A DNA stretch of 40,812 nt from an uncultured Candidatus Saccharibacteria bacterium (GCA_964564385.1 CAZMAP010000002.1:1-40812); one strand, 5' to 3'; positions 984 through 35,373 are shown, counted from the stretch's first letter. Translations and numbers: made by a program. Notes: generated from the sequence alone by a model not told the origin.

Positions 984-1012
984 TTGACAGTTAAATGTTG
1001 CTAATGTACAGT
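984..1012 (+). promoter_or_regulatory. sigma70-like promoter TTGACA-17-TACAGT
   Basis: TTGACA at 984-989, a 17-nt spacer, and TACAGT at 1007-1012. It lies upstream of the GC-rich ORF. Confidence 0.5.
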
Positions 1013-1138: not shown

Positions 1139-1792
1139 ATGTCTATCGACATGCTCGGTGGCCTGATCCAGAAGTTGCGTGGGGAGTGTATCCCCACACT
1201 CACGAGCCTCGTGGAGAAGCTCGCAGGCCGTCGCTGGCGGCGGACCCTTCGTGAGCTCAAGAAGTTCGTCCGTGAGGAGCCCTGCTGGGTTTCTCTGGTC
1301 GACGCCACCAAGCTCACCTTCGTCGCGAGCGCGACCACGACCATCGCCGCGATTCGCACCCTCTCGGTCGCGGCCTTCGCCACCACGGCCGAGGACACGG
1401 CGTCGCCCTTCGGGCTCCGCGACCTCTTGGTTGCCCTCAAGTCATGGGCGACCAAGAGATTTCGCGTCCAGGGCTACGACCTCCGCGAAGGGATGACCTT
1501 CGCGGAGATGATCGAAGCAGTGGGTGGTGAAGGGGAGATTCGCTCGAAGCACCTCTTCACTCGCGATCAGATTCGCGTGATCGTCGATCGGCAGGCGAAG
1601 GGAGAGGTGGGACCGTTGTACGTCAACGGCTGTACCAACTTCTTCTTCACGCTCGCTGAGGATGGCACATCGCTTGCGGTCGTGCGCGTCGGCTGGCTTG
1701 CCCACTACGGCTTCTGGGGCGTGTGGTCGGACTCGGCTTCGTACGGCAGCCACTGGCCCGCTGGTAATCGGCTGTTCCTCAGCGCTGCCTAG
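1139..1792 (+). CDS. Orphan protein, GC-rich cassette, paralogue family P (copy 1)
   Basis: The ATG at 1139 is preceded by AAAGGAGG, so the longer 995 start is unlikely. The C-terminal half aligns by eye with 24908..25489 (AEM..G..QI..TFF..VVR..W.AG.R) and more weakly with 13364..14008. Confidence 0.65.
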   Translation: MSIDMLGGLIQKLRGECIPTLTSLVEKLAGRRWRRTLRELKKFVREEPCWVSLVDATKLTFVASATTTIAAIRTLSVAAFATTAEDTASPFGLRDLLVALKSWATKRFRVQGYDLREGMTFAEMIEAVGGEGEIRSKHLFTRDQIRVIVDRQAKGEVGPLYVNGCTNFFFTLAEDGTSLAVVRVGWLAHYGFWGVWSDSASYGSHWPAGNRLFLSAA

Positions 1793-1833: not shown

Positions 1834-1873
1834 CTGCCCCGAATCGCGGAAGCGAGGAGGGGCAGTTTCTTTT
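1834..1873 (+). terminator. Intrinsic terminator
   Basis: CTGCCCC...GGGGCAG stem followed by TTTCTTTT. Confidence 0.7.
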
Positions 1874-5505: not shown

Positions 5506-5985
5506 ATGCATAACCCAGAAGGCCCAGCGTCAGCAGACTTCATCGATTGGGAAGCGATCAGAAAGACTGAGGAGTATCGAAAGCACATGGTTGCCTTTCT
5601 CAAGGCGCGACTTGAGGAGATTGCTCATTCGCCCGACTATATCGCGCGACTTCATCGTGCTTTGGAGACGCCACAAAAACCTCTCGAGGATTTTGATAGT
5701 CTCGAAGATTTCATGGATGCTTCTCAAGAAAATGAATTTCGCACCGAGGAAGAACAAGACATAGATGCCGAGATTTTTGCTCTTACGACTATCGGAGAGA
5801 TTGAGGCATACGTTGATGAAAACAAGATAGATTTTGATGTGCAGGAGGAAATCCGAAAATTGGAAGCGACGTATCTCGAGGACCAGCGTCAGCTCGCAGC
5901 GCTTAAAGAAAAGCACCACAGCATGCTGAGCAAGGCGCTCGAATTGATGACTGGCGAGAAAGGCAAAGACCCCGACGTACAGTAG
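5506..5985 (+). CDS. Orphan acidic helical protein
   Basis: 159-aa ORF with a TTGTCC-17-TAATGT promoter-like site at about 5433-5461. No motif recognised. Confidence 0.5.
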   Translation: MHNPEGPASADFIDWEAIRKTEEYRKHMVAFLKARLEEIAHSPDYIARLHRALETPQKPLEDFDSLEDFMDASQENEFRTEEEQDIDAEIFALTTIGEIEAYVDENKIDFDVQEEIRKLEATYLEDQRQLAALKEKHHSMLSKALELMTGEKGKDPDVQ

Positions 5986-6003
5986 GAGAGGCGGGTGTAA
6001 GCC

Positions 6004-7227
6004 TTACTCCAACTCATCCCACACATCGGCATCTTCCTGTCCGTCTATCTTAAAGAGCGCTATGCCGAGCAGGTTGTATTCTTCGGCCAAGTCGATCTTG
6101 TCTTTCATGGCGCCCGCATCACTCCAGGTCACATAGTTGAACACTGCGGCATTGCCGGTTGCGCTTGCATAGGCGAGACTGCGCGCCGCGACGACGAGGC
6201 TCTCGGGAGTGTCTTTGGGGATTGAGAAGTTTGTAATGAACTGCGGTGCATGCTTGATGAGGTCAGAGTACGAGAACGCGAGCTCGCCAGCCCCCGAGCG
6301 GCTCGGCTCGATGTTGTGCTTCTTCATCTTTTTTTCAATCGAGGGGATGTTGAATGCGCCTGCTCGACGATATTCGGCATAGCGGTCAGGAGTTACCAAT
6401 ACCTCGTATTCGTGTCCATATGTGGCGACGCCGAGCACAATCTTGTCTGCGGGGATGGTCTCGAGAGTGAGATTGAGTACGGCGCGTACCCATGCGACGT
6501 CGGAGACGGGGATGTAGGGCGCGCCCTTGTTGGCGTCGTTGAGTGTGATGTCTGCACGCTGTTGGTCGTATGCCATGATGTTCACTCGGTCGCAGTATTT
6601 TGCAATCGCGTCATAGTCATTGGCGTAGGCGAGATCGTCGGGAACGGTGCGGTACAGGTCTTCGGGTGGTGTGCGCGCCTCGATGGTGCACGAGAGGATC
6701 TTGTCTCCGAGCCCTTTCTTCAATTCTTTGAGAAAGAGGGAATAGGAATCTTTGGTTGCTGAGAGTTTTCCTTCGTAGTCAATGTCGATGCCATCGAACT
6801 TTTCTTTTTTGACGACGGAGAGAATCTTTTTGATGTGGTTTGTGCGTAGCGTTTTATCGCTGAGAATGGTGTGAACGAGCGAACCGTTGCTCGTGGTGAT
6901 TGTGGGCACCACCAAGACGTCGTCTTTGCGCGCAGCCGAGAGAAGATTCTTCCAGGCTCCCTTTTTGATGCCCATCAGATCCTTGATGTTGCCGTCGCTT
7001 TGGAGCGCGTAGCCGAAGGGATGGATCATGGACAGGTCGCCGAGATGTTTTTGTGCCGCTTTTGGTGCCCCCGATGTCCAATAGGGAACCCAGCCCGAAA
7101 TCTCAAGGTCTTGTGCTGCAGCGAGTGATGGAAAAGTGCCTACGATGAACGCCACGGCGACGAACATCATCGCCGCCTGTCTGCGCAGGCAGGCATATTT
7201 TTTTGGATGTGTGATGATGATTTTCAT
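6004..7227 (-). CDS. Secreted glycoside hydrolase family 18 (chitinase/peptidoglycan-hydrolase-like) protein
   Basis: GH18 catalytic motif FDGIDIDYEG. N-terminal basic region plus a hydrophobic signal ending in AAAQ. Alternative starts are at 7251 and 7170. Confidence 0.8.
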   Translation of the reverse strand: MKIIITHPKKYACLRRQAAMMFVAVAFIVGTFPSLAAAQDLEISGWVPYWTSGAPKAAQKHLGDLSMIHPFGYALQSDGNIKDLMGIKKGAWKNLLSAARKDDVLVVPTITTSNGSLVHTILSDKTLRTNHIKKILSVVKKEKFDGIDIDYEGKLSATKDSYSLFLKELKKGLGDKILSCTIEARTPPEDLYRTVPDDLAYANDYDAIAKYCDRVNIMAYDQQRADITLNDANKGAPYIPVSDVAWVRAVLNLTLETIPADKIVLGVATYGHEYEVLVTPDRYAEYRRAGAFNIPSIEKKMKKHNIEPSRSGAGELAFSYSDLIKHAPQFITNFSIPKDTPESLVVAARSLAYASATGNAAVFNYVTWSDAGAMKDKIDLAEEYNLLGIALFKIDGQEDADVWDELE

Positions 7228-13184: not shown

Positions 13185-13213
13185 TTGACAAAGTCGACCA
13201 AAAGGCCTATAAT
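13185..13213 (+). promoter_or_regulatory. Perfect-consensus sigma70 promoter TTGACA-17-TATAAT
   Basis: TTGACA at 13185-13190 and TATAAT at 13208-13213. It is followed by a ~140-nt leader with the hairpin GGTTAGTT..GCTTTTA...TAAAAGC..AACTAACC. Confidence 0.7.
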
Positions 13214-13363: not shown

Positions 13364-14008
13364 ATGGCAAGCAAGCATGCCCCGAACGTCCTGATCTCGG
13401 CAGCGGGATGGCTGATGCAGTTCGTCAGTCTCCTGATCAAGGGCCTTCTGGCCCGGGGCTGGGACAGCGAGCGCATTCACGCGCTCGCCACCGACAAGGG
13501 TGCGGCGGACATGGAGCGCCTCGTCGAGGCGGTTCTCAACGCTTTCGCTGCGCCGCTGGCTCCCGTGATCGATCTCGCAACCGGCATCTGCCGATTTACG
13601 GTCGACTTCACGAAGACGCTCGAGGAGATGATCGCCGCCGGGAAGTACGACTGGCGGAACAACGTCATCACCTCACAGCTGTTCCCCATCGTCGGGAACG
13701 GTACGGTCGTCGTGGACGCCAAGCTGTTCCACTTCGGCCGCAGTACCACTTCCAACGAAGTCGAGCGCGAGCTCGAAACCGCCGGATACCGTTCGGCGAC
13801 CATCGCGGAACTCCTGGCTTTCGGGGCATCGTTCCCGGAAGTCCAGCGACAGTTCCCGGTGATCGCTCTCGGCTCCGTCACGAAGGTCAGTGGCGGCCGC
13901 AGCGTCCCGTGCCTCGTCCGGCACGGCGCGGAGCGGAGCCTCGACCTCGACTGGCGCGGCCGCGTCTGGGGCGACGCCTGTCGGATCCTGGCCGTTCGCA
14001 TCAAGTAG
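13364..14008 (+). CDS. Orphan protein, GC-rich cassette, paralogue family P (copy 2)
   Basis: SD AAGAGGAG lies upstream of the ATG. The C-terminal segment ATIAELLAFG...FPVIALGS...VPCLVR...DWRGRVWGDACRILAVR resembles copies 1 and 3. The overlapping ORFs in other frames are R/P-rich high-GC artefacts. Confidence 0.65.
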   Translation: MASKHAPNVLISAAGWLMQFVSLLIKGLLARGWDSERIHALATDKGAADMERLVEAVLNAFAAPLAPVIDLATGICRFTVDFTKTLEEMIAAGKYDWRNNVITSQLFPIVGNGTVVVDAKLFHFGRSTTSNEVERELETAGYRSATIAELLAFGASFPEVQRQFPVIALGSVTKVSGGRSVPCLVRHGAERSLDLDWRGRVWGDACRILAVRIK

Positions 14009-14069
14009 TTCTCTGGTTCTTGACCCTTTGCTTCGCCGTCAGGCGAATAGCACTCGGGTCTTGGACCTT

Positions 14070-14110
14070 CCCGGCGCAACCTACCAAGGTGGCGCCGGGC
14101 TTTCGTTTTT
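14070..14110 (+). terminator. Intrinsic terminator with GCTTTCGTTTTT tail
   Basis: CCCGGCGC(14070-14077)/GCGCCGGG(14092-14099), then CTTTCGTTTTT. Confidence 0.75.
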
Positions 14111-14111
14111 A

Positions 14112-14362
14112 TATAATTAAACCAACAGACGAAAAATCTAAGGTCACGGCTTTAGATAGTTTGTTCGCACGCTCGGGAGTGAGAGTTTCGACGGCTACGG
14201 TTGTCGGAAGGGTGTTTCCGAGTTCTGAATAAAAACCAGAGAAAGTTGGTGCGTTCGGGAATCCTGATTCACAAGAGTGACAGGGGACACTCCAGACTCC
14301 CGCTCTAGGGTGTGAGCCTTTCAGCCTGTCGACGCGCCGCGTCGGCGGGCTGTGCTGTTTTT
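14112..14362 (+). ncRNA. Candidate ORF-free transcript ending in a strong terminator
   Basis: It lies between two terminators, with TATAAT at 14112-14117. There is long-range pairing CGGGAGT/ACTCCCG. A 14-bp GC stem (14323-14336/14338-14351, two G-U pairs) is followed by a T-run to 14362. No credible ORF. Confidence 0.25.
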
Positions 14363-15667: not shown

Positions 15668-15735
15668 GGGCACTACCGCCTACCACACCCGTTGGTGTAT
15701 CAGCGGGAGCCTCGCAGCGATGCGGGGCTTTTTGT
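15668..15735 (+). repeat. ~70-nt double-hairpin element, copy A
   Basis: GGGCACT.CCGCC.ACC...CCCGTTGGTGTATCA.CGGG.GCCTCGCA....TGCGGGGC + T-run. About 80 percent identical by eye to 25496-25567. Differences fall in loops or preserve pairing. Confidence 0.75.
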
Positions 15736-17641: not shown

Positions 17642-18850
17642 ATGAAGTTCTCATACAAATCTGTTACGGCAAACGGAACGGTCGAAGAAAACATTCGTGA
17701 AGCAGACGATCAGTTTGCGCTTGCCCGCGATCTTAAGGCCGAAGGAAAGACCCTCATCACGGCGGAGGAGACAGATGAAAAAGCTGCAGCCTCGCGGTTC
17801 AATCTTTCATTTGGAGGTGTGAAGCTTGCCGACAAAATCACCTTTGCCAAAAATCTTGGGGCAATGATTGATGCGGGTCTTGCGCTTTCTCGTGCCCTTG
17901 CCGTGATGGAGCGTCAGGCAAAGAGCGCAAAATTCAAAGAGATTCTTCGTGCACTTAGTACGTATGTCGAAAAAGGTTCGGCCTTGTCAGACGCGCTCGC
18001 CAAATTCCCCGAAACGTTTTCAGCGCTCTTCGTATCAATGGTTCGCGCCGGAGAGGAGTCGGGGAAGCTTGGTGATTCGCTTCGCATTGTTGCTGAACAG
18101 ATGGATCGAAGTTACGCGCTTCGTCGCAAGATTCGCGGCGCGATGATGTATCCGACGATCATTCTTTCTGTGATGGTGATCATCGGTATCCTCATGCTTA
18201 TGTTTGTTGTTCCAACCCTTACCGCAACATTCACAGAGCTCAACGTGAAGCTTCCGATGACGACGCAAGCTGTTATCTCGATGAGCGATCTTCTTACGGC
18301 CCATCCGGTAGGGGTTATTGGTGGTCTTGTGCTCTTGATTATTGCGTGCATTACCGCCTCGCGGACACGTCGGGGAAGGCGAGGGTTCGAGTTCGTTATG
18401 CTTCGTATGCCGATCATTGGCACGCTCATCAAAGAAACAAACGCCGCACGCATGTCACGAACATTTTCATCGCTCCTTTCCTCGGGTGTCGATATGGTCG
18501 CTGCCATTTCCATAACACAAGACGTTCTCCAAAATTCATTCTACAAAGAAGCGCTTGCAGAGGCGGGACGAGAAATCCAAAAGGGTGCTGCCGTCTCGGC
18601 TGTTTTTGCTCGATATGAACGATTGTTTCCGCCGATGGTGAACGAAATGATAGCTGTGGGCGAGGAGACAGGAAAACTCCCGGGCATGCTCCTTCAGATT
18701 GCAATCTTTTTCGAGGGTGAGGTCGATCAAAAAACAAAAGATATGTCGACAGTCATTGAGCCGTTTTTGATGGTCATCATTGGTGCGGCCGTTGGATTTT
18801 TTGCCGTATCAATGATTACTCCAATCTACTCGCTTTCGAGCGGAATCTAA
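17642..18850 (+). CDS. pilC: Type IV pilus platform protein PilC (GspF family)
   Basis: Two T2SSF repeats (GEESGKLGDSL and GEETGKLPGML) and three TM segments. Confidence 0.9.
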   Translation: MKFSYKSVTANGTVEENIREADDQFALARDLKAEGKTLITAEETDEKAAASRFNLSFGGVKLADKITFAKNLGAMIDAGLALSRALAVMERQAKSAKFKEILRALSTYVEKGSALSDALAKFPETFSALFVSMVRAGEESGKLGDSLRIVAEQMDRSYALRRKIRGAMMYPTIILSVMVIIGILMLMFVVPTLTATFTELNVKLPMTTQAVISMSDLLTAHPVGVIGGLVLLIIACITASRTRRGRRGFEFVMLRMPIIGTLIKETNAARMSRTFSSLLSSGVDMVAAISITQDVLQNSFYKEALAEAGREIQKGAAVSAVFARYERLFPPMVNEMIAVGEETGKLPGMLLQIAIFFEGEVDQKTKDMSTVIEPFLMVIIGAAVGFFAVSMITPIYSLSSGI

Positions 18851-18855
18851 GGAAT

Positions 18856-18986
18856 GAAATCCGAAGCACGAAGCACGAAATCTGAAAGAAGCACTAAACT
18901 CTAAATCCAAATGTTCAAAACGAAATTACACCCTGTTTTGGATTTAGGATTTCGAGCCTTGAATTTGTTTCGGATTTCGTGTTTCG
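18856..18986. repeat. Gene-less imperfect inverted repeat (about 55-nt arms, about 25-nt loop)
   Basis: Inner arms CTAAATCCAAA(18901-18911)/TTTGGATTTAG(18937-18947). Outer arms CACGAAATCTGAAA versus the reverse complement of TTTCGGATTTCGTG. The word usage resembles the arms flanking 37248..37598. Confidence 0.65.
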
Positions 18987-20752
18987 CCCGCCTGCGCAGG
19001 CAGGAATTTCGTGTTTCTGCACGCCAACGTGGTGCAACACTCATCGACGCCATCGTGGGTGCCGCGCTCATGGTGATTGTCTTCATTGGTCTCTTTGGTA
19101 TCGTCCGGCTTGCCGTGGTCTCTATTGGTCTTGGAAAGGCAAAAACGGGAGCAACGGCGCTCGCAAACGAACAGGTCGAATACATCCGAAGTCTTCCGTA
19201 CAACAGTGTTGCGGTTGTGGGCGGGATTCCTGCGGGAACTATTCCTGCGACGCAGACGATTACGCTCAACAACATCGTTTACACGCGACGTACATTTGTT
19301 CAATACATCGACAGCTCTGTTGATGGTGTTGGGCAGGCTGATACGAACGGTATTCAGGCGGATTACAAGGTGGTGAAGGTTACGGTGTCGTGGCCTTTTC
19401 GTGGAAGCGATCGTCGCGTAACGCTCATCACAAATGTTGTGCCTCGTGGTGTCGAGACGCTCGACGGTGGTGGAACCCTTGTCGTGAATGTTGTGAACGC
19501 TGCGGGCGTTGTGGTCCCCGATGCTTCTGTGACGATTAGAAACACTTCGGTTTCGCCCAACATCAATATCAGCACCTACTCGAACTCAACGGGTGCCGCA
19601 AATTTTCCCGGAGCTCCGGTATCGAGCGCATATCAGGTGACGGCAACAAAGGCAGGATACAGTACCGATCAAACGTATCTTGTGACGGCAACAAATACCA
19701 ATCCAACACCTGGCACACTCACCGTAATATCGGATCGAACAACGTCGTCGACGTTTCGTATCGATCTCTTGTCTGACCTCACGATCCACTCATTCACCGA
19801 GGTGCGTTCGGCAACATGGACGGACAGTTTTTCTGACATGTCGAAGATAGATACCGCAGTGGGGACGGCCGTATCGGGAGGGAATGCTGTGCTTGCGTCA
19901 ACTGCGGGGGCATATCAATCGTCGGGCACACTCACCTCGATCGCCGAGGCGCCGACGTATCTCTATGGGTGGAAGGCGGTTCAGTTTGATAAGACAACAC
20001 CTGCAGGAACCGCACTTCGTGTACATGTCTACTACGATACAGCAACGACGACCGAGCTTGTCCCAGAGACAGCTATTGCTGGTAATGCGTCGGGGCTCAC
20101 GTCGTCGCCAATCAACATCTCAACGCTTTCGCCAACAACCTACCCGTCACTGCGGCTGGTCGCAGATCTCACCACCACGAATGCATCCACAACACCATCA
20201 CTTCAGGAGTGGCGGCTTACCTATGACGAAGGTCCGATACCGCGCCCCAACAGCGCCTTTACGGTGAGGGGGACGAAGACCATCGGAACATTTTCGGGTA
20301 ACCCCGTTTATAAATATCAAAGCTCGGTTACAACAGGAGCGTCTGCTTCCACAACGCTCGAAAATATCGAGTGGGATTCGTATCTCATCGCAAAAGCGTC
20401 GTCGGAGACTACTGTTTCGGTGGCAGAATCATGCCCGTTTCAGCCTGTGGGAGTGAACCCTGGCGTTTCTCAGAACGTCAATATCATTTTTGCACCAGTG
20501 AGTACGTACTCGCTCCTCGTCTATGTCTCAACGGCGTCGGGTGTTCCCATCAAGAACGCGTCGGTGCGGCTCTCTCGTACTGGATACGACACAACGATAC
20601 TTTCGAGTACGTGCGGGCAGTCATTCTTCCGCGGTCTTTCGTCGGCAAACTATACGCTTCGCATATCTGCACCGGGATATGTCTCACAAACTATCAACAA
20701 TGTCTCTGTGTCTGGAGCGGCAACGCGATCGATTCTTCTCAACCCATCATGA
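18911..20752 (+). CDS. Large pilin-like protein: type IV pilin-type N-terminal helix plus carboxypeptidase-regulatory-like beta-sandwich domains
   Basis: QRG/ATLIDAIVGAALMVIVFIGLF prepilin-like segment. VVNVVNAAGVVVPDASVTIRN...YQVTATKAGY and VYVSTASGVPIKNASVRL...YTLRISAPGY match the CarboxypepD_reg pattern. The start is uncertain: the ATG at 18911 lies in the loop of the inverted repeat, and a TTG at 18959 is possible. Confidence 0.7.
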   Translation: MFKTKLHPVLDLGFRALNLFRISCFARLRRQEFRVSARQRGATLIDAIVGAALMVIVFIGLFGIVRLAVVSIGLGKAKTGATALANEQVEYIRSLPYNSVAVVGGIPAGTIPATQTITLNNIVYTRRTFVQYIDSSVDGVGQADTNGIQADYKVVKVTVSWPFRGSDRRVTLITNVVPRGVETLDGGGTLVVNVVNAAGVVVPDASVTIRNTSVSPNINISTYSNSTGAANFPGAPVSSAYQVTATKAGYSTDQTYLVTATNTNPTPGTLTVISDRTTSSTFRIDLLSDLTIHSFTEVRSATWTDSFSDMSKIDTAVGTAVSGGNAVLASTAGAYQSSGTLTSIAEAPTYLYGWKAVQFDKTTPAGTALRVHVYYDTATTTELVPETAIAGNASGLTSSPINISTLSPTTYPSLRLVADLTTTNASTTPSLQEWRLTYDEGPIPRPNSAFTVRGTKTIGTFSGNPVYKYQSSVTTGASASTTLENIEWDSYLIAKASSETTVSVAESCPFQPVGVNPGVSQNVNIIFAPVSTYSLLVYVSTASGVPIKNASVRLSRTGYDTTILSSTCGQSFFRGLSSANYTLRISAPGYVSQTINNVSVSGAATRSILLNPS

Positions 20753-24907: not shown

Positions 24908-25489
24908 ATGGATCTCGTAAAGGAGTTGTTGGAGGGGGTGCTGCTAGCGGTGTTTCTTGCCGCACTCGTCATGCCGATCGTTTTCTGGATTCGGCGCCGG
25001 CGCAAGAAGACCAACCCAATCCTCGTTCGTTTGTACGAGAACGAGGAGATCGTGGTTGGCTCGACCACAGGTGAGGAGACAATCGCGAAGGCACGGCATG
25101 TCTTTGCTGGGTATCTCGACTCCGATTTCGAGCGCTGGGGCGCGAATGTTCCGAGTGGAACACCAACTGAACGGGCCAAGATCGCGGTGTATGAGGTGTG
25201 TCGTGATGCGAATTTGGCCGAGATGTTCGGTTCCATCGGCAATTTGAATTCGCACGCACTCTCTCAGGGGCAGATCCTCCGCTTCGTTCTGGAGCATAAC
25301 GACAAGTTGCAACCAGACGAACTTGCCACGTTCTTTCTCCTTCGGGTGGGGAGCGGGTTTCTGGTTGTGCGAATTTCCAAATTGCGGGGGGAGCTCGTGG
25401 AGCGACTTGAGCGTTTCGACGACCCAACTATCTGGAGGGGTGCGGGCCGGCGTCGGGTGGTCGTTGTCAAGGCTGGGTCGTCCAAGTAG
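24908..25489 (+). CDS. Orphan protein, GC-rich cassette, paralogue family P (copy 3), N-terminal TM anchor
   Basis: SD GGAGAAGGAG lies before the ATG at 24908. N-terminal LLAVFLAALVMPIVFWIRRRRKK. The C-terminal NLAEMFGSIG...QILRFV...TFFLLRVGSGFLVVRI...WRGAGRRRVVV aligns with copy 1. Confidence 0.65.
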   Translation: MDLVKELLEGVLLAVFLAALVMPIVFWIRRRRKKTNPILVRLYENEEIVVGSTTGEETIAKARHVFAGYLDSDFERWGANVPSGTPTERAKIAVYEVCRDANLAEMFGSIGNLNSHALSQGQILRFVLEHNDKLQPDELATFFLLRVGSGFLVVRISKLRGELVERLERFDDPTIWRGAGRRRVVVVKAGSSK

Positions 25490-25495
25490 TTCCTC

Positions 25496-25567
25496 GGGCA
25501 CTTCCGCCCACCTCGCCCGTTGGTGTATCAACGGGTGCCTCGCACGTTGTGCGGGGCGCTTTCGTTT
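25496..25567 (+). repeat. ~70-nt double-hairpin element, copy B (includes the terminator)
   Basis: See 15668-15735. Hairpins CCCGTT-ggtgtatc-AACGGG and CCTCGCA-cgttg-TGCGGGG, then CGCTTTCGTTT. Confidence 0.75.
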
Positions 25568-25602: not shown

Positions 25603-25631
25603 TTGACGTATTGCAGATTTTGTAATATCAT
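25603..25631 (+). promoter_or_regulatory. Promoter-like TTGACG-17-TATCAT
   Basis: TTGACG at 25603-25608 and TATCAT at 25626-25631. Confidence 0.45.
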
Positions 25632-25667: not shown

Positions 25668-25865
25668 ATGGGCAACCAAGGAATTTCTTTTGACGAGGGA
25701 CGTGGGGAGTTTGTTCTTCGTGATCTCGCGGGGAACACAACATACTATTCCGTCCGCGCGATGCAGCAGATCGTTCGCGAAGCGAACATGATCTTGCTCG
25801 GTCTTGCCGACGCGCCCCCGCCCACTCGTCGTGGCGGTGTGAAGGAACCCATCGTACACCACTGA
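25668..25865 (+). CDS. Small orphan protein (65 aa), own promoter and terminator
   Basis: SD AGAGAGGAGGAAGAGG lies before the ATG, and a terminator CCCCGCAC/GTGCGGGG lies at 25873-25906. The FV.R...G......A...h.E...hL pattern is shared with 26028..26237. Confidence 0.55.
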   Translation: MGNQGISFDEGRGEFVLRDLAGNTTYYSVRAMQQIVREANMILLGLADAPPPTRRGGVKEPIVHH

Positions 25866-26027: not shown

Positions 26028-26237
26028 ATGAGTACGGATCGCAACGGTCCACGCGTGGCGTACCACTCTCGGGAGAAGATGTTCGTTGTTCGTGGCGACG
26101 ACGGTCGGCCCATTCGCCTCGACCGTTCGGGTGCCGAGGAAGTGCTCATGGAGCTCGGCCGGATGCTGGGAGAGGAGCGTGCTCTTGATGCGCGTTTGGC
26201 GCAAATAAAGCTCCTCGACACTATCTGCCAAAAGTGA
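26028..26237 (+). CDS. Small orphan protein (69 aa), weak paralogue of 25668..25865
   Basis: SD GAAAGGAG lies before the ATG at 26028. The similarity to the neighbouring small ORF is judged by eye. Confidence 0.5.
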   Translation: MSTDRNGPRVAYHSREKMFVVRGDDGRPIRLDRSGAEEVLMELGRMLGEERALDARLAQIKLLDTICQK

Positions 26238-33552: not shown

Positions 33553-35373
33553 ATGTTTCTGTTGATCGCGTTTTTGTCCGCTCTCGTCGGCGCGTTGCCA
33601 CTTTTCCTTCGTGGAAAAGTGGGGGCCGCCATCTGGGCCGCTTGCGGCTATGGTGTCGTGAACACCGTCCTCTTCTACGTGTCGTGTCCGTCTCTGGCCT
33701 ATCCGATTTTCGGCGGGGTCGGCTTCATGACCCTCATCTGGCTTTTCGTTTCAGCCGGAATCGACGGGTCTGGCGACTACGGCTTCGAGCTCACGACGTC
33801 CGCCTGGGCACCCATCGTGCTTCTGGCCGCGTTCATTCTCGTGCTCGCCGGTTCGTGCAGTATGTTCCGATCGGACGACTACTATCGCCTGATCGGGGAC
33901 GTTGAGAAGCGCGAGTGGACGAAGGATGTCCAGCCCAAGGATCCCAGGCACGTCCGTCTGGTCCCTGAGAAGTTGGCCTATTACCTCGCTACCAAGCAGT
34001 TGGGTGAGGCCGGCGGCGCCATCGGTAGCCAGTTCTCGGTCTCCGAGAACAGTCTGACGCTCCAGGAGTTCCACGGCGAACTCTGGTACGTGGCTCCGCT
34101 CGAGTTCAAAGGCTTCAGTGTCTGGACTTCTGCGGATGTCACGCCGGGCTTCGTCATGGTTCACGGCGAGGACCCCAACCGCCCGGCAATCGTGAAGACC
34201 GGACACCAGTTCCGTTTCATGGAGAGCGCGTACTTCGGCGACAACGCTGAGCGCCACCTCTGGAAGGACGGCTACTGGAACAAGGTTCTCTCGGATTGGA
34301 CGTTCGAGATCAACGAGGAGGGCAAACCCTTCTGGGTGGTTACGGTTTCCAAACCGACCATCGGATGGGGAGGCTCTAAAGTTCTCGGCGTCGTGGTCAT
34401 GGATCCGACGAGCGGTGAACACACGTTCTACGCCGTTGGGTCGGTCCCGAAGTGGATCGACCGCGTGTATCCGAGTCACATCGTCTCCAACTACATCAGC
34501 AATTGGGGGCGGTTCGCCTCAGGATGGTGGAACAGTTTTTGGGGCAAGAAGGACATCATGAAGCCCGAGGAGCCGAACATCATCTACGGTGCAGATGGCG
34601 ATCCGTACTGGGTCACCGGCCTGACGTCGACCAACATCAAGGACAACTCCATGGTTGGCCTGATGTACACCAACAGCAGGACCGGTAAGTCGGTCCGGTA
34701 TCACGCTGTCGGCGGCACGGACGAAGCGGTCATCGAGTTGGTCAACAACAAGGTGGCCTACCAGAAGTTGAGCGGCGCTGCGCCGGTTCTGTACAACATC
34801 TACGGAGAGATGACCTCGATCGTGCCTCTCCTCGGTGAGAGTCACACGTTTCAGGGAGTTGCGTTCGTCGATGTGCGGAACATGCGTCTCGTCGTCGGTA
34901 AGGACCAGGAAGACGCCGCCCGTCAGTACCAGGAACTTCTTGCTACGAGCGGTCAGCAGTTGGCTCCCGAGAAGTCGCGCGATTCGGTCGAGAAGGAATT
35001 TCAGATCGACCGAATTTCGGCGGCGAGTGAGAACGGTACGACGGTGTACTATCTCTACGTCGCGAAGGAGCGCCACATCTTCACGGGTACGAGGAAGGTT
35101 TCCTCGGAACTCGTCGTGACGCAGCCCGGCGACCACGTCCGCGTTCGGTATGTGAATTCGGGCGAAGGTGTCATGCCGATTCTGAGTCTCAAGAATCTCG
35201 ACATCCTCATCGAACAGACCGACGTGCAGCGGCAGTTGGCCGAGCGCGTCGAGTCCAGGAAGGATGAGGTGTCGCTTTCCGAAGAGGGGAGGTCGGCACG
35301 CGGAAGGTTGGAGGAGATGACCGACGAAGAAATCGGGAGACTCCTCCAGAAGCTTGACAACGAGAAGAAGTAG
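33553..35373 (+). CDS. Orphan 606-aa membrane protein (N-terminal ~4 TM, large extracytoplasmic domain, C-terminal coiled coil), GC-rich cassette
   Basis: SD GGGAGGAG. The ORF is uninterrupted with protein-like composition. A terminator lies at 35423-35453. No family assigned. Confidence 0.7.
   Translation: MFLLIAFLSALVGALPLFLRGKVGAAIWAACGYGVVNTVLFYVSCPSLAYPIFGGVGFMTLIWLFVSAGIDGSGDYGFELTTSAWAPIVLLAAFILVLAGSCSMFRSDDYYRLIGDVEKREWTKDVQPKDPRHVRLVPEKLAYYLATKQLGEAGGAIGSQFSVSENSLTLQEFHGELWYVAPLEFKGFSVWTSADVTPGFVMVHGEDPNRPAIVKTGHQFRFMESAYFGDNAERHLWKDGYWNKVLSDWTFEINEEGKPFWVVTVSKPTIGWGGSKVLGVVVMDPTSGEHTFYAVGSVPKWIDRVYPSHIVSNYISNWGRFASGWWNSFWGKKDIMKPEEPNIIYGADGDPYWVTGLTSTNIKDNSMVGLMYTNSRTGKSVRYHAVGGTDEAVIELVNNKVAYQKLSGAAPVLYNIYGEMTSIVPLLGESHTFQGVAFVDVRNMRLVVGKDQEDAARQYQELLATSGQQLAPEKSRDSVEKEFQIDRISAASENGTTVYYLYVAKERHIFTGTRKVSSELVVTQPGDHVRVRYVNSGEGVMPILSLKNLDILIEQTDVQRQLAERVESRKDEVSLSEEGRSARGRLEEMTDEEIGRLLQKLDNEKK

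Follow-up and report, generated by a model that had tools for sequence, protein, structure and literature searches.

P1, the gene at positions 1139 to 1792, is one of three GC-rich single-gene units in this window, which raises the question of what such genes encode and whether they have a common origin. By the window we mean the whole 40,812-nt stretch of DNA analysed, which is contig C2 of an assembly of 676 kb (0.68 Mb) in 67 contigs, about 97% complete and with a GC content of 0.51, as is typical of a Patescibacteria/CPR genome. The initial annotation described the three genes as divergent paralogues of an orphan family, each in its own cassette. All three are located among housekeeping genes: P1 is flanked by a pseudouridine synthase gene (rluA) on one side and rplS on the other, P2 follows a SIMPL-family gene and has pilB and pilC about 1.8 kb downstream, and P3 follows tpiA and pgk, with recJ about 1.5 kb downstream. 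The three genes are as follows.

1139..1792, plus strand: P1, 217 aa, with a helical module (ELKKFVREEPCW) at the N-terminus and a domain at the C-terminus
13364..14008, plus strand: P2, 214 aa, with a three-helix module at the N-terminus followed by a C-type-lectin-like domain (residues 68-212)
24908..25489, plus strand: P3, 193 aa, with an N-terminal transmembrane (TM) anchor followed by RRRRKK

Each gene is preceded by a ribosome-binding site: AAGGAGG, 8 nt 5' of the ATG at 1139, for P1; AAAAGAGGAG, 5' of the ATG at 13364, for P2; and GAAGGAG, 5' of the ATG at 24908, for P3. The GC content at third codon positions (GC3) is 0.81 in P1, 0.85 in P2 and 0.68 in P3, compared to about 0.55 for neighbouring genes, and this frame-specific signal marks all three as real coding genes. 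The start codons and coordinates first assigned to the three open reading frames are correct. The following expression signals were found around P1 and P2.

984..1012, plus strand: promoter-like site of P1, TTGACA-17-TACAGT, 10/12 matches (scan and direct reading)
1834..1873, plus strand: likely terminator of P1, hairpin CTGCCCC...GGGGCAG with the T-run TTTCTTTT (direct reading)
13185..13213, plus strand: promoter of P2, TTGACA-17-TATAAT, 12/12 matches (scan), with a terminator before it

The hairpin downstream of P1 has a loop of more than 8 nt and is not called by the scan, and the promoter scan of the region upstream of P3 returned nothing at or over its threshold.

Scans of Pfam, PHROGs and NCBIfam assigned no family to P1, P2, P3 or members of their families, and none of 86 P3-family members has a relevant Pfam match. 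Relatives are nevertheless numerous for two of the three. P2 has 54 database relatives, from Azambacteria, Uhrbacteria and other groups and including a Bradyrhizobium; P3 has two by word index, and for its family a profile built from three sequences retrieves 1,963 cluster representatives at E<=1e-3 and 1,339 at E<=1e-10. The term "orphan" therefore does not fit P2 or P3. P1 has two database relatives, 97% and 57% identical to it.

The genes located beside these relatives point to the nature of both families. We identified seven P3-type loci in named genomes, which come from Parcubacteria, Kaiserbacteria, Paceibacterota and Saccharibacteria and from one MAG labelled 'Gammaproteobacteria'. In three of these loci (L003, L006 and L007), a repeat of the final 115-128 nt of the gene is located about 400 nt downstream, and 16/16, 24/26 and 16/20 of the mismatches, respectively, coincide with adenines in that downstream repeat. 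All three loci then carry avd in the opposite orientation, and L003 and L006 also have a reverse transcriptase (RT) gene after it, while L007 ends before the RT position. When translated, the downstream copies read, for example, FVANVNVNAGKLKANVNRFDNDNVWNADDRHQVVVPK, which is the AAC-codon design of DGR template repeats (TRs). A similar picture emerges for the P2 type. The L011 target P0011, 69% identical to P2, lies in the gene order pilB-transposase-target-bAvd-RT-pilC and has a variable region (VR) and TR that differ at adenines in 16/16 mismatches; P0023 of an Azambacteria locus (L009) has a VR/TR pair with 22/28 mismatches at adenines and a bAvd gene, with no RT at the locus; and P0047, also of the P2 type, has no DGR. 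Because VR/TR pairs, avd and RT genes stand beside their relatives, both families are DGR variable-protein families, and P2 and P3 were shown by sequence comparison to belong to them. Homology to proteins with a VR/TR/RT context of their own is clear for P2 and P3 and is remote for P1 (hhalign E 5.4e-6). The description of the family as "diversifying" was apt, since the C-terminal 40 or so codons are DGR variable regions in relatives of both families.

We therefore consider it highly probable that P1, P2 and P3 are Patescibacteria/CPR-type DGR variable proteins that now stand without a TR, avd or RT beside them. A DGR target of this kind joins an N-terminal module to a ligand-binding domain at its C-terminus. 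The VR, formed by the last 40 or so codons of that domain, is overwritten repeatedly in an intact element by cDNA copied from the nearby TR. The error-prone reverse transcriptase that makes this cDNA misreads adenines, such that AAC codons in the TR give rise to a wide range of residues while the scaffold stays fixed. The three proteins would most likely now be fixed-sequence binding proteins left from past hypermutation; we infer that all three are static at present and that they function in ligand binding.

How the three genes are related to each other can be judged from profile comparisons. The similarity between P1 and P3 is weak but genuine. BLASTP aligns 84 aa of the two at 25% identity (E 0.013), and hhalign, restricted to the domains, aligns them at E 5.4e-6 with a probability of 86%, compared to E 0.3-0.4 for reversed-sequence controls. 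P1 also matches a deep 86-sequence profile of the P3 family at E 1.8e-5, and a search of the 4,673 six-frame open reading frames of the genome with the P3-family HMM places P1 fourth, as the best match from outside the family (P3 itself matches its own family HMM at E 8e-59). For P2, BLASTP gave no match to either P1 or P3. The domain-only hhalign comparisons gave E 0.062 for P2 with P3, over 110 collinear columns, and E 0.014 for P2 with P1, also collinear; both are slightly above the reversed-sequence controls, which overall gave E 0.3-0.5 over 7-19 columns. These comparisons required deeper profiles, as hhalign runs from shallow 3-sequence alignments were uninformative.

Accordingly, there are two families: a P3 type, comprising P3 and the divergent P1, and a separate P2 type, whose homology to P1 and P3 is unproven. 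P1 is a divergent member of the P3-type DGR-target family. The proposal that the three are paralogues of one family holds for P1 and P3 (E 5.4e-6) and not for P2, whose values (E 0.062 and 0.014) are not significant, and the hhalign comparison of the three C-terminal regions, which the initial annotation had named as its check, divides in the same way. The alignment by eye on which that proposal was based was probably one helix off for P2, as both hhalign and the order of predicted secondary structure place ATIAELLAFG opposite LSQGQILRFV rather than NLAEMFGSIG. W..G.R...V, the C-terminal pattern common to the three, is formed by scaffold residues of the hypermutated tail that do not vary. Within this genome, P2 has a paralogue at C51:187-924 and P3 has one at C22:4778-5269 plus a tail remnant on C21, and no within-genome paralogue of P1 was found. 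As a separate observation, the P3-type proteins P0063, P0064 and P0067 (381-560 aa) carry two to three tandem copies of the whole domain.

Structure models offer a further view of the two scaffolds. The AF2 model of P2 (pLDDT 88.8) comprises an alpha/beta domain (residues 68-212) preceded by the three-helix module. A sequence search of the PDB with the P2 profile found nothing. The top 40 Foldseek matches of this model in the PDB are nearly all C-type lectin domains; these matches are weak (E 0.012-0.4, TM 0.45-0.6 normalised to target), the best having E 0.012 and prob 0.99. The P3 model (pLDDT 91.7) has its best PDB match at E 0.28, with a lectin first appearing at rank 39, and produced no BFVD match and no meaningful PDB match. 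The order of elements in the P3 model, a strand and helices followed by four strands, parallels that of the P2 model.

The N-terminal halves of P1, P2 and P3 are mutually unrelated, as had been noted, and the initial annotation was right on the overall architecture: GC-rich single-gene units in which the C-terminal module is conserved and the N-termini vary. These N-terminal modules are not confined to one scaffold. Residues 1-62 of P2 are 48% identical to the N-terminus of the P3-type protein P0084 (E 4.5e-16), matches between the N-termini of P2-type and P3-type proteins number 83 at E<1e-3, and P3-type proteins, the L006 target among them, have N-termini to which that of P1 is similar at E 2-3e-7. 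N-terminal modules are thus recombined onto either scaffold family, in line with the general modularity of DGR targets (Roux et al. 2021, PMC8144416). Hydrophobic segments indicative of TM or signal sequences are rare, occurring in 3/122 P3-type and 2/46 P2-type N-termini, in agreement with the remark in that study that recognisable TM domains are missing from CPR targets, and most of these target proteins appear to be cytoplasmic. Given the structural comparisons, the P3 type could represent a VR-bearing fold distinct from the C-type lectins, one that could be exchanged for the lectin-like P2 scaffold behind the same set of N-terminal modules.

These data bear directly on the alternative that survives best, namely that all three genes are divergent paralogues of one orphan accessory family with a homologous C-terminal module. 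The P1-P3 relationship, the collinear profile alignments of P2 with both other proteins at values just above the reversed controls, the similar order of secondary structure in the P2 and P3 models and the presence of the same N-terminal modules on both scaffolds are all compatible with this idea. We nonetheless regard it as unlikely: P2 is not significantly similar to the others in BLASTP or hhalign, its model matches C-type lectins where that of P3 matches nothing, neither family is orphan, and the true within-genome paralogues of P2 and P3 lie elsewhere, on C51 and on C22 and C21, respectively. Two families of DGR targets therefore remain our preferred description of the three genes.

If P1, P2 and P3 descend from DGR targets, their tails may retain traces of adenine mutagenesis. 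The strongest such traces were found in P2, for which the following features can be defined.

13871..13999, plus strand: P2 variable region (VR), from alignment to the L011 TR
14009..14253, plus strand: retained DGR spacer downstream of the P2 VR, with homology to L011 ending at 14253

The L011 TR (5995-6123) is 77.5% identical to 13871-13999 of the window, and 23/29 mismatches fall at TR adenines, 18 of these being A to G. Comparison of the P2 tail with the L011 target gave identities of 0.75, 0.68 and 0.98 at the first, second and third codon positions, and the same inversion is seen between the P2 tail and its own-genome paralogue on C51. Past hypermutation is thus demonstrable for P2, and the match of its VR to a heterologous TR shows a past pairing rather than a present one. 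Beyond the VR, 5401-5887 of L011 (the 3' half of the target and the spacer) is 87% identical at the nucleotide level to 13764-14253 of the window. This homology ends about 108 nt before the position at which the TR starts in L011, and tblastn with three avd and two RT proteins found no avd or RT on contig C2. Because the VR footprint and spacer are kept and no avd or RT is present on the contig, P2 is the surviving front half of a DGR, with the TR, avd and RT lost beyond 14253. Positions 14254-14360 of the window mark the approximate boundary of this deletion or replacement. A strong hairpin with a T-run is located at 14322-14352, just before the extrapolated TR start (about 14361).

For P1, a comparable signal comes from its 57%-identical relative, P0006 (L013), which occupies the same position between rluA and rplS; the flanking pseudouridine synthase gene and rplS are 67% and 64% identical, respectively, to their L013 counterparts. 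The region concerned is as follows.

1673..1789, plus strand: P1 tail, a probable former VR (residues 179-217; boundaries approximate)

Over the last 39 codons, nucleotide identity between P1 and P0006 is 0.69 at the first, 0.85 at the second and 0.87 at the third codon position, whereas the third position is the least conserved elsewhere (the P1 core has 0.67, rluA 0.44 and rplS 0.50). The codons that differ in the tail are almost all NNC. Differences at the first two positions account for 18/23 in the tail compared to 47/88 in the core, a modest enrichment (Fisher p 0.035). The 97%-identical relative of P1 carries seven substitutions, none of which is in the tail. A former VR that is now static fits both the inverted codon pattern and the substitution-free tail of this relative, and it is probable, as judged from these comparisons, that the P1 tail was a VR hypermutated in the past. 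Searches for a P1-type TR close to the gene, in the genome and in metagenome contigs (two scans, one with peptide patterns and one with the VR nucleotide pattern) were negative, and the peptide-pattern scan returned no P1 relatives.

One might argue instead that both the likeness of P1 to P3 and the pattern in its tail are products of chance or composition, and that P1 is an unrelated lineage-specific gene. Its family has two database relatives, the BLASTP match to P3 has E 0.013 and the footprint p 0.035, and P1 is GC3-rich throughout, such that NNC codons are common in it anyway and third-position identity is inflated. This argument is improbable in view of the reversed-profile controls, which reach E 0.3-0.4 compared to 5.4e-6 in the true orientation, of the independent matches of the P1 N-terminus to P3-type proteins (E 2e-7) and of the identity at third positions in the tail, which exceeds that in the equally GC3-rich core (0.87 and 0.67, respectively). 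We thus continue to treat P1 as a putative former target related to the P3 type.

In P3, the features of interest are its anchor and the part of the tail that corresponds to the VRs of its relatives.

24929..24994, plus strand: P3 transmembrane segment, residues about 8-29 (best 19-residue Kyte-Doolittle window 2.68; helix 2-29 in the model)
25355..25486, plus strand: P3 tail, VR-equivalent, aligned to the VRs of L003, L006 and L007 in the family profile

Both the TM segment and the RRRRKK that had been noted in this protein are present, a feature that sets it apart from most members of its family (3/122 N-termini with a hydrophobic segment). From the positive-inside rule and the RRRRKK after the TM segment, we infer that the C-terminal domain of P3 faces the cytoplasm. 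The P3 tail showed no adenine-mutagenesis footprint, with ordinary codon-position identities against four comparators. The TRs of P3-type relatives are too diverged from the P3 and P1 tails and revealed no adenine bias, and the spacers of these relatives found no match in the window. Past hypermutation of P3 is undetectable. Two small orphan open reading frames, each with a Shine-Dalgarno sequence, lie downstream of P3 at 25669-25865 (65 aa) and 26029-26237 (about 69 aa); the first has a promoter-like site upstream (25603-25631) and a hairpin after it.

The genome does contain a DGR of its own. Its only RT gene, with the GxxxSQ motif, is on C8 (17742-18791, minus strand) beside the genome's only avd gene, which is divergently oriented (18795-19145, plus strand), and the TR at 19195-19313 of the same contig has VR matches on C43 (17/18 mismatches at adenines), C56 (12/13) and C25 (degenerate). 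The targets of this element form a third family (LDSDGNHVNVGNFDAKGLNVNNWNDNNRNSNIGLSSARQ), for which the C43 and C25 members gave no detectable relation to P1, P2 or P3. The C8 TR was also considered as a template for P1, P2 and P3 and was rejected, as it has no similarity to them. The parts of this DGR on the other contigs are at 79-879 of C43, 1-73 of C56 and 9205-10008 of C25. A terminase gene and ParB-methylase genes adjoin the C8 DGR, which may lie in a prophage-like region.

A sensitive blastn search for a TR of P1, P2 or P3 found none in the window or in the rest of the 97%-complete assembly. Since no TR was found and the contig carries no RT or avd, the status of the three genes as targets rests on homology and footprints. 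A TR could be hidden in an assembly gap, because assemblies break at DGR repeats, as this one does: the last 55 bases of C8 are the first 55 of C43. It is in this setting that continued diversification in trans has to be weighed, in which a TR and RT at another site, perhaps one within such a gap, would act on the three genes as remote targets. Remote targets are known for DGRs, although they were not surveyed in Roux et al. 2021 (PMC8144416); RT and avd are intact on C8; DGR repeats fragment the assembly; and the GC3 of P1, P2 and P3 is as high as that of targets in intact elements. Even so, we assign this scenario a small probability. The one TR found, on C8, matches the VRs on C43, C56 and C25 and not those of P1, P2 or P3; the seven substitutions in the close relative of P1 spare the tail; and the spacer homology of P2 stops before the place where a TR would be expected. 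Fixed proteins left over from past hypermutation thus remain our preferred reading. Finally, the idea that these genes encode polymorphic-toxin immunity proteins or are homing genes was dropped after VR/TR pairs were found in their relatives.

The GC-rich character of the cassettes proved to be a property of the target genes themselves. In 10/11 loci, the GC3 of the target exceeds the median of the other open reading frames at the locus, with a mean excess of +0.23 (Wilcoxon p 0.002). In these loci the target also stands far above each individual neighbour, its own RT and avd included. The RT and avd genes of the same elements are host-like in this respect: in L006 the target has a GC3 of 0.69 compared to 0.25 and 0.22 (0.25 for the RT), and in L009 the target has 0.85 compared to 0.41 for avd and 0.37 for polA. 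From the N-terminal module to the tail, the target gene shows this excess evenly, and it does so in hosts that span 35-52% GC. Depletion affects A and T in equal measure, which indicates that simple avoidance of sense-strand adenine is not the explanation, and ordinary horizontal transfer fits poorly because the adjoining RT and avd are host-like. The excess would point to an unrecognised GC-biased process, or to a sequence requirement, tied to DGR-target status; repair of cDNA-DNA heteroduplexes and recombination between targets are candidate processes. The GC content of targets received no mention in the DGR surveys that we searched. Taken jointly, a GC-biased process tied to DGR targets and a second, non-lectin VR scaffold form a possible reading that we put forward tentatively. 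Two observations may be added here: the loci in which no GC3 excess was seen, L008 and L012, are also loci in which no DGR was found, and an open reading frame of the window at 33553-35373 (606 aa, GC3 0.79) resembles DGR targets in composition, with no Pfam match and no match by the P2-type or P3-type HMMs.

DGR variable proteins of Patescibacteria/CPR were reportedly first surveyed by Paul et al. 2017, and the system itself is known in CPR; what is new here is the assignment of P1, the N-terminal modules shared across scaffolds and the composition anomaly. Like the targets of the CPR-restricted DGR clade 2 (PMC8144416), which have no recognisable TM segments or known domains, the proteins described here are small, mostly soluble and without signal peptides, and they combine modular N-termini with a conserved C-terminal domain whose last 40 or so codons correspond to the VR. 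The relatives of P2 and P3 also follow the CPR DGR layout of target, TR, avd (minus strand) and RT (plus strand). P1, P2 and P3 differ from clade 2 in having no RT, avd or TR in the window, and P1 further differs from its targets in being a very divergent branch with no known TR. Solved DGR variable proteins with a C-type lectin fold include Mtd of Bordetella phage BPP-1, TvpA of Treponema, the archaeal AvpA and TaqVP of Thermus (PMC2408619, PMC5006420, PMC6328139). As in these proteins, the VR is at the C-terminal end of a ligand-binding domain, with AAC-rich TR codons and a fixed scaffold, and the P2 model resembles their class in that its best structural matches, although weak (E 0.012), are C-type lectin folds; in contrast, there is no sequence similarity to them, and the P3 model has no match among solved or viral predicted structures.

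As in other remote, orphan or decayed DGRs, the targets are away from the RT, and P2 keeps its VR and spacer with the remainder deleted; L009 of the Azambacteria, which has kept avd and lost its RT, offers a parallel. What distinguishes this genome from known decayed DGRs is the combination of one working DGR, serving a third family, with about ten templateless target-like genes or remnants from two other families. The finding of this many in one 0.68 Mb genome with a single active DGR supports the view that targets remain as fixed binding proteins after their mutators are gone. The three genes described as orphans thereby receive a concrete assignment, as putative ligand-binding proteins of a hypermutation system that is unusually common in CPR, and the analysis provides leads on how CPR DGR targets may be built and maintained, among them the shuffling of N-terminal modules, the target-specific GC3 excess and a scaffold with no structural match. 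A further observation concerns L003 (CAYHYG010000015.1), from the MAG labelled Gammaproteobacteria: its DGR is typical of the CPR type and has a P3-type target, and the contig may be misbinned.

A last observation concerns an element located 7 nt after the stop codon of P3.

25496..25567, plus strand: double-hairpin element, the second hairpin and its T-run being terminator-like

This element of about 70 nt has four copies in the genome, at 25496-25567 and 15668-15735 of the window and at 5760-5824 and 6131-6176 of C21 (both minus strand). Three of the four directly follow VR-type gene tails; upstream of the one at 15668, no VR can be recognised. The element may represent a DGR target-recognition hairpin fused to a terminator. 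On C21, the region at about 5760-6700 (minus strand) contains a full target-like open reading frame ending in ...FGERRVNVNRLDGFWDDNWLFGGVPRE, with its Asn codons still in place, followed by a hairpin element, a 56-aa remnant of a P3-type tail (69% over 29 aa) and a second hairpin element, an arrangement that looks like a small graveyard of DGR targets.
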